Notes: generated by a model not told the origin, from the sequence alone. A stretch of 57,924 nt of DNA from Candidatus Hodarchaeota archaeon (GCA_029856365.1 JAHQWW010000011.1:1-57924), one strand, 5' to 3'. Shown: positions 22,788-40,665, numbered from the stretch's first letter. A program made the numbers and translations.

Positions 22788-23615
22788 TCATAATTTAGGG
22801 GAAGTTTTGCCTGTTTCTATAAGGTGCATAATGAGAACCACTGATAATAAAATACAAGCAGCAAATACCACTCCAATAATTCCTGATTCTGGTGTCCAAC
22901 TTGATTGTCCTAGTAGCCATTCTGGTACATTCCTCGTAATGTCAAAAAAGGTTGTTATCAAAGTAAAGGAAAAATTATAAGCAAAATGAAAACCAATACA
23001 GAAGAACAAAGTATTCTGTGATTTTATAAATCCTATACCAAGGCCTATTCCCCAGATTGTCAACGTGATCATCCCAAGTAATAAGTGAAATGGGGATAAC
23101 TCAGATTCAATAAACATATTTGGGAAGTGTAACATAGCCCATAATATTGAGGATACAACAATTCCTACCTTATCTGAATATTTTTGCTTAAATATTTGCA
23201 GATAGTAACCTCTGAAGACTATTTCTTCTGTTAATATTATTGCAAGTATTCTAATGCTACCTAATAGCGTAAATATTGCCATTTCGCGTGAAAATGGTTT
23301 TGGTAATAATGTAACCAAATTTAAAATTATTTCTGACACGAATAATGAAGGAACTAATATCATTGCTTGAATTAAGCCCATCGCTAATAATATTACCCAC
23401 TTTTCATTCTTATGGAACCCTAATTCAGTTATTGACTTTTCATCCCGCTGCCAAAATAAAATTGCTCCCAAAATAAGGATAATTAGTGAAAGAATGTTTA
23501 AAAAGGAGAAAATAGGGTAGAGAAACCCTAACAATAACATAATCAAAACAATAATATATAGCAAAACTGCCTTAATCATAATAAATTGGTTCCTATGAAT
23601 TCTCTTCACTGGCAT
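22788..23615 (-). CDS. CPBP (Abi/CAAX type II) intramembrane glutamic protease
   Basis: EEIVFRG (EExxxR), WAMLH (FxxxH) and HFAYN (HxxxN), plus a late PESG. Confidence 0.9.
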   Translation of the reverse strand: MPVKRIHRNQFIMIKAVLLYIIVLIMLLLGFLYPIFSFLNILSLIILILGAILFWQRDEKSITELGFHKNEKWVILLAMGLIQAMILVPSLFVSEIILNLVTLLPKPFSREMAIFTLLGSIRILAIILTEEIVFRGYYLQIFKQKYSDKVGIVVSSILWAMLHFPNMFIESELSPFHLLLGMITLTIWGIGLGIGFIKSQNTLFFCIGFHFAYNFSFTLITTFFDITRNVPEWLLGQSSWTPESGIIGVVFAACILLSVVLIMHLIETGKTSPKL

Positions 23616-23631
23616 AATTTCATCTTGATTC

Positions 23632-24663
23632 TCAAATATGAAAGTAAAATTCTCTTGGTTTAAGTTCTTTGATCTTATTAGTCTCTATTACAATTTTTCT
23701 TCTAATGTCAGTACATAAATGACATTTAGAAATATATCCATCAGAATTCTCCCTAAAATCGAAATTCTCAACTGAGTAATCATAAAGATCTTTCATGTTT
23801 CCTAAGATTAGACATCTAAAGACTGGAAAATCATCAAGGTTAATACCCTCATTACATAAAGAATCCAAGTTTCTAATATTCCCCCAAGAAAGGCCACCAC
23901 AATAGCCTGGCATATAATTTCGATAATTATCAAAATGATTGTGCCAGTTTCGTACTAAGTCTAATTGGCAATTTTCTTTGAAGAAGAAATTTGACGGGTG
24001 TTTTTTGTAAAAATCTTGAAGTTTATAGGCAGCCCTACCCATTTGAAACAATTCAACTTTTTTCTGTAAATCATTAATGTCCACTTTCCTCAAATACTGT
24101 TCAATTGAAAATTTTTCTTTAATACCTAGACTTTTGAATTGATAATAGTAGTATTTTTGATAAATCATTACGTTATTACCGAAAATGTCTTTACTTTTCT
24201 TGATGGCTCTCTCTGTATGCTCAAACGGGATATGTTCCAAGATGAAAGGGTTAACACTAATCAGAATGCCTTTCAAGCCGTTTCTTCTTAATTCATTTAA
24301 TTTTTCTTTGGTAATTTCATCATTTTTACACCAATAGCAATTAGTTTCTACAAAAAGGGAGGGAATTTTCAATTCATTTCCAAGTTGTATGCTTTTCAGC
24401 AGAATATTATAATTTAGAAATGGTTCACCACCAGTTATATGAAGACCATAATTGAGACTTACATTTTCAGATCCATAAGGAGAAGGTTTAATGAATTCCG
24501 ATAGTTTTTCTAAAATGATTTCTAAATCTTTTTCACTGATCCAGATATTCTCCCATTTTGGGGTACCAAAATACATACAATGCTTACACTCCCCGCTACA
24601 TCGATAGGAAAGAATTAATCCCCCAGAAAATGGTTTAGGAACTAATAATTTTTTCAATATCAT
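23632..24663 (-). CDS. Radical SAM protein
   Basis: CSGECKHC (CxxxCxxC), TGGEPFL and ETNCYW. C-terminal Cys residues (GYCGG, KCHLC) suggest an auxiliary cluster. Confidence 0.9.
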   Translation of the reverse strand: MILKKLLVPKPFSGGLILSYRCSGECKHCMYFGTPKWENIWISEKDLEIILEKLSEFIKPSPYGSENVSLNYGLHITGGEPFLNYNILLKSIQLGNELKIPSLFVETNCYWCKNDEITKEKLNELRRNGLKGILISVNPFILEHIPFEHTERAIKKSKDIFGNNVMIYQKYYYYQFKSLGIKEKFSIEQYLRKVDINDLQKKVELFQMGRAAYKLQDFYKKHPSNFFFKENCQLDLVRNWHNHFDNYRNYMPGYCGGLSWGNIRNLDSLCNEGINLDDFPVFRCLILGNMKDLYDYSVENFDFRENSDGYISKCHLCTDIRRKIVIETNKIKELKPREFYFHI

Positions 24664-24770: not shown

Positions 24771-25865
24771 TTATTTTTTCCTTTTAGATTTCATCAGAAT
24801 CGCTGCAAAGGCAAAAATTAAGGGGAGAATCATGAATCCAGGTATGTTTGATGTTTCACTTGTAGTCTCCTCAACATCCTCCTCTGTAATTGTCCAAAGA
24901 CTGAAATGAGTTGTATTGCAATAAAGTGTATCTCCTTCTAACCACTGATGTTTAGGTGCTTCCCATGTCTTAGAAGATTCATTATAAAACATAAACTTAA
25001 GTTTTTCCATGTTTTTAACGCCTAATTGATTCTTTATTTGATTTGTAAATGTATAGGAAAAATTTGCTTGAATCTGAGCAGAATTGTTCATTTCAATAGC
25101 AATTGTTTGTGTCCGAATCTGATGTTGTTTTTGCTTCATAGCTTGAGGAGATTTCTCATACTCTGTAACAGTCATCTCTGAACTCTGATTTAATTTAAGT
25201 TGGAGAGAAAAGCCACTTTGTGTCTGGATTTGGTACCGATGGCCAGCCTGAACCGCAAATCCTGTTCCATTCTGACAATTAAATGGTGTCCCTGGGGTCG
25301 GGTTACGATCAGGGCTTTCGTCACTTTCAGGTGAAAGAATAGTCCAAATACTGAAATGTGATGTGCTGCAGAAAACAGATGCCCCGTCAGATGTTATTTC
25401 AACCCAATTTTGATGAGCATATTGCCATTGAAATCTGGAGGTGTTATAAAAGGCCCATCTAAAAGTTGATACATTACCAAGTCCAGTAAGTTCATTATTA
25501 GTATAGTTCCTATACATAGTTGCATTCATATCACATGTACCATTTAGTTCAATGTGCATGTATCGATTTACAGCACGAGTTTGGTTTGGCAATGGGCCTG
25601 CAGAGTTTGTTTCTGATTCATTAATTCGAATTCTAGCACTTTCATTCGTGCGGATCCTGATGTGATTTCCAGACATAGTCCTTATTTGAGTTCTATTTCC
25701 AGCTGTAATATTGATTTTCTCTCCGTTACCTGAAGTTACCCAAGGCTCATCAGGGGGATCAGCTGTAATTGAAGTTGTGTCAGCTGCCACAGGAGCCGAA
25801 AAGTATACTCCAAGAAGACTGAGAGTCAATAAGAAATAAATTAAGTTTTTTATTCTCATGATCAT
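24771..25865 (-). CDS. Secreted surface glycoprotein with two tandem HFS-motif (GAIN/ZU5/PGF-pre-PGF-like) domains and PGF-type C-terminal anchor
   Basis: Signal peptide ending APVAA, two repeats with a 150-aa period ending CSTSHFSIWTI and CNTTHFSLWTI, about 16 N-x-S/T sequons, and the tail IPGF-hydrophobic-KSKRKK. Confidence 0.8.
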   Translation of the reverse strand: MIMRIKNLIYFLLTLSLLGVYFSAPVAADTTSITADPPDEPWVTSGNGEKINITAGNRTQIRTMSGNHIRIRTNESARIRINESETNSAGPLPNQTRAVNRYMHIELNGTCDMNATMYRNYTNNELTGLGNVSTFRWAFYNTSRFQWQYAHQNWVEITSDGASVFCSTSHFSIWTILSPESDESPDRNPTPGTPFNCQNGTGFAVQAGHRYQIQTQSGFSLQLKLNQSSEMTVTEYEKSPQAMKQKQHQIRTQTIAIEMNNSAQIQANFSYTFTNQIKNQLGVKNMEKLKFMFYNESSKTWEAPKHQWLEGDTLYCNTTHFSLWTITEEDVEETTSETSNIPGFMILPLIFAFAAILMKSKRKK

Positions 25866-26184
25866 TCACCAATTAATAAAATTGAGAAGTCAATTAGCTT
25901 CAATCACTCCATATTTAATTTATTTGAGGAACACTTTTTTGGGAGGCTGATTAATTATAATAGACTTTCTTTCCCCTTGTAAATTTATAACATCTATTAA
26001 TTCCCAGATTAATTGGTTTTGAGTCTAATAGATCGAAAAAATCCCGCATTTTCAATTAATAATTTTTTGAAATTTGAATCCAGTCAAGGAGTCACCTTTT
26101 TAAGAAAATCTCTCTATATGGAAGACAAGTATAATCAAGAAGACTTTAAAAGATCTGAAAATGCGATCAAAACCATTTAGAAAT

Positions 26185-27693
26185 TTAATTCGTTTTATTA
26201 CGTCTTTTTATCGCTTCCGCTAAAACTTTGTATTTCGCTGGCTTAAGAAAATATCGTTCACCTTTGAGTTCTATCAAATTTATGCTTTGAAATTTCTTTG
26301 TATGATAACGAATTGACTCTTTCGAAGATCCTAAATAGTCTGTCAACGCATCGAGATCCCAAGAATTCATTTCTTGGAAAGCTTTCGCGACCCTAAAGCC
26401 TACTCCAGAGATTATAGCAAAATACAGTTCTAAGAAATCAGGAGCAGGTTCATTTCTTAGCAAATAAAAGATTTCATATTGACCAAAAACTTTCCTTTTA
26501 ATTATCCTGAAATCTTCTAATACTTGTAAATGCCATCGAAGGCCTGAAATTCCTATTTCTAATTCCCTTTTTAATTCACGGAAGTGTAAAAAGTCCCTTT
26601 CTTCAAGTATATTAATAATCTGACTGCGGTATTGATTTTCAATAACATCATATTCGTCTATTCTTCTAACAACTGGGGGATAAAGTATTTGCCCTATTAA
26701 TAAAAGTGGTGAGAGGAAAATTATTGAAAACCAATCACGATCTTTGGGAATTTCCAGATCTTTAGGGTGCATTGCCCATTTACTAATTAAATAAGCTAAT
26801 CCAAGGAATAAAGATGTCACAGAGACAAGAGCTACTCCTGCTTGAACAGTTTCTTCAGAAATGTTGAACAATGGTAATAGTGGGGGATCGGAAGATTGTT
26901 TGACCTCTGAGCTTGATTGAGGTGTTGAGGCTTCAGAAAATTCGATTCCAAAGGTGATAACTGATGTTAAAAATTGATTGAAAGAGGAATATGATGAATT
27001 ATACTCTTTAAGTGATAAAGGAATAGCGAAAATGAATCCCGCCTGTTTCACAAATCCTGTTATTGTTGTTTTACCTTCTGGAGTAGTTTGACTTGTAGCA
27101 ATGCTATAAGAATCATCAATAGTAGAAACAATACCAAGACTACCTTGAATCTCTAAGGTTGAATGTAGATCAAAATGAAACGGAACTTTCGTGAAGGTGT
27201 CATTCATTATCGTTAATGTTATATTTCCGACAGTATTACCAGGTGGCCATTCTTTTAGACCAGAACTTATGTTTAAGCCTAACAAAGTGTGAAAAGGTGT
27301 TGGAAAACGCCATATTTGAGGAGAAATTATTGTGAAAACTCCCCCTTCCTGGACGAATTTTTCGATACCATTCACAACTGTTTCATTAAATGGGGAGGTT
27401 ACTTGATTCAGAATCATTATTATTTGAGAGTAAGTATTCAGGAAGTTTTGATCGAAAAATAAACCATTTAAGTCTTCAGAAGTCTGAATGTCAAATATCT
27501 CACCGTTTGAATTCAAAGATCGGTTTAAAGCTGTTGCTAAGGCATTATCAGCATTATTTTCCACAAGAAAGAGAGTCTCTCCCTTTTGAATAGATCCACC
27601 TGATTTCCAAGTAGGTCGTGCTTCAATGAAAAGAAAGAGGAAGATAATTGCCGTCAGTAATATGTAATTCTTTGCGATATATCGAAATTTCAC
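26185..27693 (-). CDS. Membrane-anchored transcriptional regulator (extracellular domain, TM, tandem winged HTH; COG3398-like)
   Basis: Signal/TM at the N-terminus, an alpha/beta ectodomain (IEKFVQEGG), TM near residues 285-305, then DVIENQYRSQII..LHFRELKRELEIGISGLRWHLQVLE and a second HTH LTDYLGSSKESIRYH. Confidence 0.8.
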   Translation of the reverse strand: MKFRYIAKNYILLTAIIFLFLFIEARPTWKSGGSIQKGETLFLVENNADNALATALNRSLNSNGEIFDIQTSEDLNGLFFDQNFLNTYSQIIMILNQVTSPFNETVVNGIEKFVQEGGVFTIISPQIWRFPTPFHTLLGLNISSGLKEWPPGNTVGNITLTIMNDTFTKVPFHFDLHSTLEIQGSLGIVSTIDDSYSIATSQTTPEGKTTITGFVKQAGFIFAIPLSLKEYNSSYSSFNQFLTSVITFGIEFSEASTPQSSSEVKQSSDPPLLPLFNISEETVQAGVALVSVTSLFLGLAYLISKWAMHPKDLEIPKDRDWFSIIFLSPLLLIGQILYPPVVRRIDEYDVIENQYRSQIINILEERDFLHFRELKRELEIGISGLRWHLQVLEDFRIIKRKVFGQYEIFYLLRNEPAPDFLELYFAIISGVGFRVAKAFQEMNSWDLDALTDYLGSSKESIRYHTKKFQSINLIELKGERYFLKPAKYKVLAEAIKRRNKTN

Positions 27694-38982: not shown

Positions 38983-40665
38983 TTATAGTGTCTTTTTTTT
39001 TCGGAGGATAGGAAGTAGAACCAAGATCGATATAAGAGCAATAATCCCATTGAATCCAGGAGTTGCTTTAAAATCAGTAGCAGATACATTAATTCCCAAC
39101 TGTAAGTCAGAAGCGTATTCTGAGGTTACATTCACATAAAGAGTGAAGCTATCTGGCATATCCTTTGATAATAATATTGGTAATTTGTTGGTTTTAGTTG
39201 GAAAAAGAGTTCCTATTGAGTCAGGGTAATCTACAATTATATTTTCGTTTGATGCTTGTACTTCTACTTTTGCACTATCACTTGTATTAAAGTATTGAGA
39301 TCCTGACTTCAAAGATATTTCTATTTTATTTTCATTATCTAATTTGATATATTGAGTTTTCTCTACTTCTATTGAAGGAGTTAATGACAACCAATGTTCT
39401 TCAAAATTATAAAGCTTGCGATGAACATTTTCAATCTGGTGTTCTGGAGGATCGAAGAAAACCACATCACTTTCATATATATTGTGTGTGCCATTATTTT
39501 CGTAAAAATGCCAATCATATGTACCGGTCGATTTGTAGATCTCTAGGGTAAGAGGAATGATATGTTGAGTGACGTAATTCCAGTCACTCCAGTCTCCTGC
39601 AACAGTATAATCAACATCAGTGTTTGTTTCATCAAAAAAAACCTCAGGAAGTAATTGTTCACTCTCCCAATTATCTAACATCTTTTCATAAAGAGAACTT
39701 TCAGCTTGTTTTTCATTTGTATATCCCCATCCAAGTATAGGGATAGTTGTACCAGAGTGCAAGCTTGAAGCATGAGCAAATTTATGTTTGACTACAAAAT
39801 CGACTAATGCTTTTGTTTCATTTTCTGATAGAGAAGCATCCCCAGGATAATCTTCAAGTAGTGTATTGCTGGTGCTGCCAGAGTCACATCTGCTGTCATT
39901 CCAGTGGATTGGATAATTCCGATTAAGATCAACTCCTCCACCAGAGTCTTCATCTATCAATCCATCCTGGTCTTCATCACTTCCTTCTAGCCAAGTTTCC
40001 CAACCCCCAGTCTCATACTCTGCTGAATAGATAGAAACATAACCATCTCCATCCGCATCATTAGGGCCATCCTCGTCAATTTTCCCGTCATTATCGTCAT
40101 CAATAGGTCTCATATTTTTACGTTGCCAAGGGTCTTGATATAAAGTGTAATCAAGACTATCTGGATTTAAGGTGACAATAAAGAACACAATTGTACGATC
40201 GAGTAGCTCTCCAATAGATTGATCAGAAGTGAGATAACCATTTACCAAATCACGGATAGTTCGGACTGTATGCTCAATTGTAATTTGTTCTCGTGCGTGA
40301 TGATGAGCCACTACGTAGGTTTTTCCCTTTACATCTTCCATAATTTGTTCATTAGTGAGCGCAATCAACGGAATAGGATTGTTCCAATACGATAAGCCAA
40401 TGAAAGAATAATCAATGAGATTAGAAGCAGTATGGTTAAAATATTCTAATTCAGCATAAAGCTCTGAAAGGTTATGATATTTATCTGGAAATAGTAATTC
40501 CAATGATTCTGCTTTCACAACCGTTGTTTTAGAATAAGGAATTCTTTGCACTTGCAGTTTGAATTCTTGATTCCCGTTGAATGCTGAGCTCGAATAGCAT
40601 GAAAGTGGCAGTAAAATAAGTGTTAAAATCAAGAGTTTTACAAGAGTAGTTCTCAATTCCTTCAT
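38983..40665 (-). CDS. Zinc carboxypeptidase (M14), secreted with PGF-type anchor
   Basis: HHARE (HxxE), NPDS, RKN, GVDLNRNY, LHSG and TLEI, with an acidic DxDxDG insert and the tail TPGFNGIIALISILVLLPILRKKK. Confidence 0.9.
   Translation of the reverse strand: MKELRTTLVKLLILTLILLPLSCYSSSAFNGNQEFKLQVQRIPYSKTTVVKAESLELLFPDKYHNLSELYAELEYFNHTASNLIDYSFIGLSYWNNPIPLIALTNEQIMEDVKGKTYVVAHHHAREQITIEHTVRTIRDLVNGYLTSDQSIGELLDRTIVFFIVTLNPDSLDYTLYQDPWQRKNMRPIDDDNDGKIDEDGPNDADGDGYVSIYSAEYETGGWETWLEGSDEDQDGLIDEDSGGGVDLNRNYPIHWNDSRCDSGSTSNTLLEDYPGDASLSENETKALVDFVVKHKFAHASSLHSGTTIPILGWGYTNEKQAESSLYEKMLDNWESEQLLPEVFFDETNTDVDYTVAGDWSDWNYVTQHIIPLTLEIYKSTGTYDWHFYENNGTHNIYESDVVFFDPPEHQIENVHRKLYNFEEHWLSLTPSIEVEKTQYIKLDNENKIEISLKSGSQYFNTSDSAKVEVQASNENIIVDYPDSIGTLFPTKTNKLPILLSKDMPDSFTLYVNVTSEYASDLQLGINVSATDFKATPGFNGIIALISILVLLPILRKKKTL

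Follow-up and report, generated by a model that had tools for sequence, protein, structure and literature searches.

A cargo-less tandem of MAIN/GAIN_B-type domains in an Asgard archaeal surface protein and its neighbouring transmembrane regulator gene

Self-cleaving GAIN domains have long been regarded as eukaryotic. A locus in a 57,924-nucleotide stretch of DNA from Candidatus Hodarchaeota archaeon (GCA_029856365.1 JAHQWW010000011.1:1-57924; this whole stretch is called the window below) raises the question of whether a small archaeal surface protein may cut itself at two domains of a similar kind, and what such cutting would do at the cell surface. The gene, on the minus strand at 24771..25865, encodes a protein of 364 aa with two homologous domains, each of which ends in a His-Phe-Ser (HFS) motif. 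According to sequence comparison and structure prediction, this Asgard protein belongs to the MAIN / GAIN_B / ZU5 superfamily, in which its cargo-less tandem form is unusual, and its HFS motifs lie at the known cleavage position. The reading that we favour, with a probability of roughly 60%, is a self-cleaving tandem MAIN-type protein with a functional tie to a membrane regulator encoded by the adjacent gene.

MAIN (Microbial Autoproteolysis INducing) domains are GAIN_B-like domains whose occurrence in both bacteria and archaea was described recently (Brogan & Rudner, bioRxiv, 13 May 2026, doi 10.64898/2026.05.12.724683). According to this preprint, the MAIN domain of B. subtilis YfkN cuts between F and S of HFS, as determined by Edman sequencing; the replacement S1346A abolished cutting, and the wild-type fragments remain bound to each other. 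Most of the other bacterial MAIN domains tested were likewise obtained on purification in cut form, with their fragments associated. The typical MAIN protein is large (mean 158 kDa) and consists of a signal peptide, a cargo (enzymes, adhesins or toxins), one MAIN domain and an anchor, which agrees with a preliminary description of the present locus, where HFS domains were said to occur normally once and beside a cargo. The authors proposed shear-driven cargo release "rather than" transmembrane signalling, and the text of the preprint mentions no Asgard member, tandem form, signalling or regulator partner.

Architecture, conservation and distribution of the tandem HFS protein

The surface-protein gene is present as a single copy, the only HFS gene in the window's genome, with its stop codon at 24771-24773. 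A Shine-Dalgarno-like GGTGA (within 25857-25870, minus strand) directly precedes the first ATG (25865) and is followed after 6 nt by the second (25859), and the orthologues align from the position of Met3; the true start is therefore probably the ATG at 25859, two codons downstream of the annotated one. The protein begins with a Sec-type signal peptide (aa 1-28, 25782..25865, minus), which is indicated by the sequence and by a predicted hydrophobic helix at aa 5-22, with a putative cleavage position between PVAA and D. It is followed by domain 1 (aa ~40-179, 25329..25748, minus), by the membrane-proximal domain 2 (aa ~186-329, 24879..25310, minus), by an acidic Ser/Thr linker (aa 330-340), and by a Heimdall-CTERM-type sorting/anchor signal composed of IPGF, a transmembrane (TM) helix and KSKRKK (aa 341-364, 24774..24845, minus). 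The Heimdall-CTERM signal starts 19 residues past S322, and the protein has, like MAIN proteins, a leader, an envelope tether and a domain that adjoins the anchor.

The two halves of the protein share 31% identity over 133 residues (pairwise blastp E 9e-24), which suggests that their duplication is old. Their ends are ...CSTSHFSIWTI in domain 1 and ...CNTTHFSLWTI in domain 2, and both have the shared ending C-x-T-x-H-F-S-x-W-T-I given in the preliminary description. The two homologous β-rich domains that it placed after the signal peptide are confirmed as well. H170-F171-S172 (25350..25358, minus) and H320-F321-S322 (24900..24908, minus) are the predicted cis-autoproteolysis sites 1 and 2, with cutting expected between F171 and S172 and between F321 and S322. 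Both codon triplets are CATTTCAGT, spaced 450 nt, and the coordinates given earlier for these identical codons were exact. The count of about 16 N-glycosylation sequons was likewise accurate: the mature part has 16 N-x-S/T sequons, compared with 6.2 +/- 2.2 in shuffled sequences (0/2000 shuffles reach 16), and at least seven of them are invariant or near-invariant among orthologues.

The IPGF-TM-KSKRKK anchor, also noticed earlier, is present and is scored by the Heimdall-CTERM model (NF045529) on either side of its 24-bit cut-off, with 19.9 bits for the 364-aa protein by hmmscan and 25.0 bits for its C-terminus in a six-frame search of the genome. Apart from this sub-cut-off hmmscan match, no family was matched in Pfam and NCBIfam scans of the protein. 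At least 12 open reading frames (ORFs) of the window's genome end in Heimdall-CTERM above the NCBIfam cut-off, one of which, an ORF of 561 aa, lies in the window (signal 38992-39066, minus). Exosortase/archaeosortase (PF09721) was not found in this genome, the assembly of which is 83.6% complete.

A word-index search with the 364-aa protein found 67 homologues with identity down to 29%, all of which keep the motif, and every named source is a Heimdall-/Hodarchaeales metagenome-assembled genome (MAG), which bears out the probable Asgard origin proposed earlier. In an alignment of 37 of these homologues (35-84% identity to the window protein), neither repeat varies at H, F or S, nor at Thr at -2 of His, Trp at +2 of Ser, or two upstream Trp residues. 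When a profile of the orthologue family was searched against 1.84 billion representatives (E<=1e-3), 231 proteins were retrieved, nearly all of which bear T-x-H-F-S-x-W-[TG]-[IV] in one to three copies. Outside the orthologous group, 188 domains of 142 proteins were counted at covered positions: His is present in 163/171, Phe/Leu/Met/Tyr in 171/171, and Ser/Thr in 167/170. Conservation of His and Ser in homologs, on which the preliminary description had made its proposal depend, is thus invariant within the orthologues and about 95-98% in the distant set. Conservation does not extend to the Cys at -4 of His in the wider family.

When 122 relatives were scanned with Pfam and NCBIfam, no covering model was obtained, with the exception of one weak match to TIGR04213 (PGF-pre-PGF). 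For one distant relative, there was a match (6e-5) to the NCBIfam model for the IgA-binding protein of S. agalactiae. Matches to arenavirus GP2 were the sole sequence matches in the PDB (E 0.06-1.3, with the single sequence and with the profile); they share '...W L.... Y. N. T H F S' with aa 255-325 of the protein and were rejected as chance sharing in a helical fusion subunit.

In a survey of the phylum, 92/300 genomes have a match. The two-domain orthologue occurs in 14/20 other genomes of the window's genus, while single-domain forms of about 230 aa occur in 56/68 genomes of one family and in 7/7 of another, and three-domain forms also occur. Since the single-domain forms align mainly to repeat 2 of the window protein, domain 1 looks like a later addition to an ancestral membrane-proximal domain, to judge from these alignments. 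More distant relatives do have cargo, for example beta-helix/NosD, Ig-like, cohesin or BNR domains, or a type IX secretion system (T9SS) tail.

The profile also finds small eukaryotic proteins with one or two HFS-x-WG domains and hydrophobic tails resembling glycosylphosphatidylinositol (GPI) signals. They come from Pharyngomonas kirbyi, the chytrid Fimicolochytrium jonesii, an MMETSP transcriptome, and about 15 transcript-sized JGI contigs. This group appears to be undescribed and could matter for the history of the GAIN domain. An animal protein was retrieved as well, namely catfish XP_060742127, which has five Pfam GPS motifs and a secretin-type seven-transmembrane (7TM) region (7tm_2). Its whole-sequence E of 7.7e-15 sums six near-identical repeats, each domain by itself reaching about 25 bits, a borderline score for a search of the whole library; the individual alignments span about 108 residues and place CNTTHFSLW on CSYNHMTLF. 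We take this match as supporting evidence from sequence, not as independent proof. In a FastTree domain tree (153 domains, 139 columns), 62/150 branches were unresolved and the fish GPS lay on a very long branch, so that the tree is silent on the direction and origin of the eukaryotic domains. A family profile that reaches protist, chytrid and animal GAIN-type proteins is a useful anchor for the question of their origin, to which the present data give no answer.

Predicted fold and the position of HFS

The AlphaFold2 model, which was built on the 37-sequence alignment, has a mean predicted local distance difference test (pLDDT) of 83.9, with about 90 in both domains, and a predicted template modelling score (pTM) of 0.49. 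Both domains are β-sandwiches, all-β save two helices of 4-7 residues (123-126 and 275-281). Each HFS is placed in the hairpin turn between the final two strands of its sandwich, that is, between strands 161-168 and 173-179 in domain 1 and between strands 313-318 and 323-329 in domain 2.

Searched against the PDB with Foldseek, the model ranked the ankyrin ZU5A-ZU5B tandem at the top (E 2.2e-6, probability 1.00) and also found the BAI2 GAIN domain (probability 0.98). In VIA-align, domain 1 matched ZU5-ANK with Z 9.8 (root-mean-square deviation (rmsd) 3.1 Å over 124 aligned residues) and BAI2 GAIN with Z 8.6 (on model 47-181). The best matches of domain 2 were BAI3 GAIN (Z 10.0, rmsd 3.5 Å, 132 aligned), CD97 GAIN (Z 9.9), rat NLRP1 FIIND (Z 9.2) and CARD8 (Z 8.2). 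The top 18 rows (Z 7.6-10) are GAIN, ZU5 or FIIND, except for one axonemal chain of unchecked kinship, and the rows below are unrelated, with Z <=6.2. The GAIN/ZU5 likeness that had been proposed from the sequence is therefore also found at the level of the predicted fold. No Nup98 chain is among the Foldseek and VIA-align rows listed, an absence that does not exclude likeness. Alignments of both domains together to tandem ZU5 gave an rmsd of 13-17 Å, which means that the tandem geometry is not superposable.

The structural matches also place the HFS motif. Alignments to chains of cleaved N-terminal fragments end at model residue 321 or 322; for the human NLRP1 N-terminal fragment (6x6c_E), model 189-322 is matched by the complete chain (1079-1212), and the proven NLRP1 nucleophile is the next residue, S1213. 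The rows of GPR56 (...382), GPR110 (...566) and GPR97 (...249) end at what we take to be their GPS sites. Because the alignments stop at 321/322, with the NLRP1 nucleophile next, HFS occupies the known cleavage position.

The neighbouring regulator gene and the promoter element

Directly upstream of the surface-protein gene lies a conserved gene (26185..27693, minus) for a one-component-type membrane regulator of 502 aa. Its AlphaFold2 model (pLDDT 78.7) consists of an N-terminal signal/anchor, an alpha/beta ectodomain (aa ~40-256), hydrophobic helices at 280-308 and 321-337, and two winged-helix domains (aa ~347-501). According to Foldseek, the ectodomain is ThuA-like / class-I glutamine-amidotransferase-like (GATase1; 1t0b, E 2.2e-7, TM 0.56 on target), and winged-helix Pfam families, the ArsR type among them, are found in homologues of the regulator. 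The DNA-binding part of the regulator would face outward if both helices cross the membrane.

The regulator adjoins the HFS gene in 27/32 loci of the phylum survey. Among named GTDB genomes, it is upstream in 14/15 loci of Hodarchaeales orthologues, and it lies immediately downstream on the same strand in 15/17 loci with the single-domain forms of Loki-, Hermod- and Odin-type genomes; the three loci without it, one from Hodarchaeales and two of Loki type, run into the end of a contig. These two samples overlap, and related genomes in them are non-independent; the pairing covers at least five family-level groups and two gene orders. In two MAGs, the two genes have successive NCBI locus tags. 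Only about five regulators of this kind are present in the window's genome. The Loki-type regulator ectodomain was also compared with the MAIN-type repeat profile, to which its match is too weak (hhalign P 0.0096, probability 1.9%) to confirm it as a copy of the fold without the motif.

Three other genes were considered as parts of the system and rejected. A radical SAM gene and a gene for an Rce1-like CPBP protease lie downstream (22788-24663, minus) and are probably outside the system: among the 15 orthologous loci, the former occurs only in the closest, 90%-identical relative, and the latter in 0/15. A gene for a 521-aa membrane protein is present in 3/15. As separate observations, the three-domain HFS gene of one sister family adjoins a second ORF that weakly matches the repeat profile, with no regulator nearby, and one Heimdall genome has a second, divergent two-domain paralogue, also without a regulator.

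The promoter region of the surface-protein gene contains a conserved promoter-proximal 18-mer, AAAAAAGTGTTCCTCAAA (25923..25940, minus), 58 nt before the first ATG, which was found before 15/15 Hodarchaeales orthologues examined. A putative TATA-like box, TTAAATAT (25911..25918, minus), lies 4 nt past the element, at a distance of about 45-50 nt from the start codon. The core AAAGTGTT-n-CT-n-AA and a near-unchanged flanking A-run are kept in all 15, while the rest of the spacer has diverged. The element occurs once in the 4.2-Mb genome; a genome-wide search for a regulon found only this site, and matches with two mismatches were no commoner than those of a reversed-pattern control.

Relatives of the element are found in other lineages. 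Loki-type promoters have an in-register relative, GGGGAAAA-n-TATTCCTCAAT followed by TTTTTATAT, which matches at least 15/20 positions in 14/16 loci, compared with 0.09% of 2222 control windows, the seed of the pattern having been drawn from one of the 16 scored loci. The Loki-type relative can also be given as GGGGAAAAnTATTCCTCAAT. Bathyarchaeial relatives have a palindrome, GGAAC-N6-GTTCC, at the same promoter position. Archaeal regulators act at sites abutting the region of the TATA box and the B recognition element (TATA/BRE), and the position of the element suggests that it may be bound by the neighbouring regulator.

Proposed mechanism, alternatives and comparison with known systems

We propose that the protein is exported by its Sec signal peptide, carries many N-glycans, and stays attached to the membrane through the Heimdall-CTERM anchor. 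After export and glycosylation, each domain would cut its own chain between Phe and Ser by an N-to-O acyl shift: with His as the base, the Phe carbonyl would be attacked by the Ser hydroxyl, and the resulting ester would then be hydrolysed. The new N-termini, SIWTIL... and SLWTIT..., would each be the last strand of a sandwich, and for this reason the three pieces would be expected to stay together non-covalently. A short lipid- or TM-anchored stub would then bear two links in series, each of which can break, and either force or a ligand could detach the outer domain alone or both domains. The protein and the regulator may together form a surface-sensing module, as is suggested by an adjacency that is kept across Asgard and by a conserved, gene-specific promoter element; the regulator would control the self-cleaving protein and may read its state.

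A stronger version of this proposal is doubtful, and we put it forward with clear reserve: the protein would be a detachable, self-cleaved input for a one-component transmembrane transcription factor, where shedding exposes or removes a tethered strand that is read by the regulator, which in turn acts on the conserved operator at the locus. If true, it would be a prokaryotic counterpart, and possibly a forerunner in the lineage closest to eukaryotes, of the tethered-agonist mechanosensing of adhesion G-protein-coupled receptors (GPCRs).

Several findings tell against a self-cleaving protein tied to its regulator. The protein has no match to Pfam GPS (PF01825) at E<=10, nor do any of its relatives (0/122), and none to Pfam ZU5 (PF00791) at the same threshold, though the fold is alike. 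Its assignment to MAIN rests on fold, motif position and architecture, not on sequence comparison with YfkN, and the cleavage chemistry has been demonstrated for bacterial relatives only and for no archaeal member. The ZU5 domains of ankyrin and UNC5 share the fold yet do not cut. Nup98 H862 mutants still cut, so that conservation of His alone is no proof of catalysis. With a pTM of 0.49, the orientation of the two domains to each other is uncertain in the model. On the side of the regulator, the two hydrophobic helices after its ectodomain leave the topology unsettled, and adjacency is missing in Bathyarchaeia and other archaeal loci (0/7), as it is in Dyadobacter (0/1). The ectodomain varies by lineage, ThuA-like here and different in Loki-type genomes, with the winged-helix part kept, which makes one conserved protein-protein interface less likely. 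Adjacency and promoter element may reflect only transcriptional control of the surface-protein gene by the regulator. Finally, the MAIN preprint favours cargo release over signalling (doi 10.64898/2026.05.12.724683), and the window protein has no cargo to release.

Among the alternatives, self-cleavage and shedding without signalling survives best, and we consider it possible though rather unlikely. The protein would then be a shear-releasable coat component or adhesin that loses its outer domain or domains, and the regulator would merely switch the gene in response to its own sensed signal. This account fits the demonstration of release in the MAIN preprint and the argument made there against transmembrane signalling (doi 10.64898/2026.05.12.724683); a gene-specific operator-like element is what one-way transcriptional control would predict, and the change of the regulator ectodomain among lineages suits it as well. 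However, the benefit of release would be obscure for a protein without cargo, and a pairing kept in at least five Asgard families and two gene orders is tighter than that of a usual regulator and its target, while still compatible with one.

That the domains do not cut at all seems improbable to us. They would then serve a glycoprotein coat as modules for structure or adhesion, and T-x-HFS-x-W would be kept only for a strained β-turn with a buried Phe. Non-cleaving ZU5 domains do have the same fold, some GAIN domains are uncleaved (BAI2, 8oek, 'uncleaved state', and GPR125), and Phe is a structural anchor in CARD8/PIDD. However, non-cleaving relatives lose His and Ser/Thr, and UNC5b has Leu at the Phe position, whereas the present family retains H and S at 95-98% among highly divergent sequences; moreover, bacterial domains with an identical HFS do cleave (doi 10.64898/2026.05.12.724683). 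The last alternative, a chance motif or annotation artefact in which the ORF is no real gene or the HFS pair comes from a recent unselected duplication, could appeal to the identical HFS codons at the two sites and to nothing else, and is already refuted by the conservation data; against it stand 67 motif-bearing homologues down to 29% identity, repeats only 31% identical, a confident structure model, and a single-copy gene present in 14/20 other genomes of the genus.

The self-cleaving tandem protein that we favour can be compared with several known systems. It resembles the GAIN/GPS domains of adhesion GPCRs and polycystins (Arac et al. 2012, PMC3321182) in the fold of subdomain B, in H-hydrophobic-S/T between the last two strands, in the motif context W...W...C-x-x-x-H-x-S/T, and in being an extracellular, juxtamembrane domain that is glycosylated, as predicted here from sequons. 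Unlike GAIN/GPS, it lacks the helical subdomain A, the conserved disulfide pairs and a fused 7TM region, and any receiver would be a separate one-component regulator. In the model, the B-type sandwich stands alone, and without the six-helix subdomain A this does not amount to a full GAIN domain.

The ZU5/FIIND proteins share the fold, and the HFS tripeptide is the same as that of PIDD, which is cut between F and S of HFS at two sites, while NLRP1 and CARD8 are cut between F and S of SFS. Tandem ZU5-ZU5 is known in ankyrin and PIDD, and the window protein is also a tandem. Unlike it, ZU5-UPA/FIIND proteins are cytoplasmic and eukaryotic, with UPA and death-fold partners. A previous study united ZU5, GPS and Nup98 domains in one superfamily and found bacterial members (Zhang et al. 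2012, PMC3482391), and the window protein resembles the autopeptidases of this superfamily as a prokaryotic, secreted member. The toxin autopeptidases of the same study differ in being N-terminal in RHS/toxin giants with a C-x-H motif, whereas the window protein has its Cys at -4 and no toxin.

The closest likeness is to MAIN proteins such as YfkN and the Streptococcus agalactiae protein, with which it has in common a GAIN_B-like sandwich without GAIN_A, HFS in the last β-turn, secretion, and a tether to the envelope; by sequence and model, the window protein has every computable defining feature of a MAIN domain. Unlike typical MAIN proteins, it is only 40 kDa, with two MAIN-type domains in tandem and without cargo, and it has a Heimdall-CTERM anchor, a heavy load of sequons, and a transmembrane regulator gene as partner. 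The kind of domain was already published in 2026, and what is unusual here is the cargo-less tandem, together with a transmembrane regulator paired with it throughout Asgard lineages and an operator-like site that has been conserved. The family is small, of the size of a soluble ectodomain, and easy to test, and it is the first context where a prokaryotic GAIN-type domain might pass information across the membrane.

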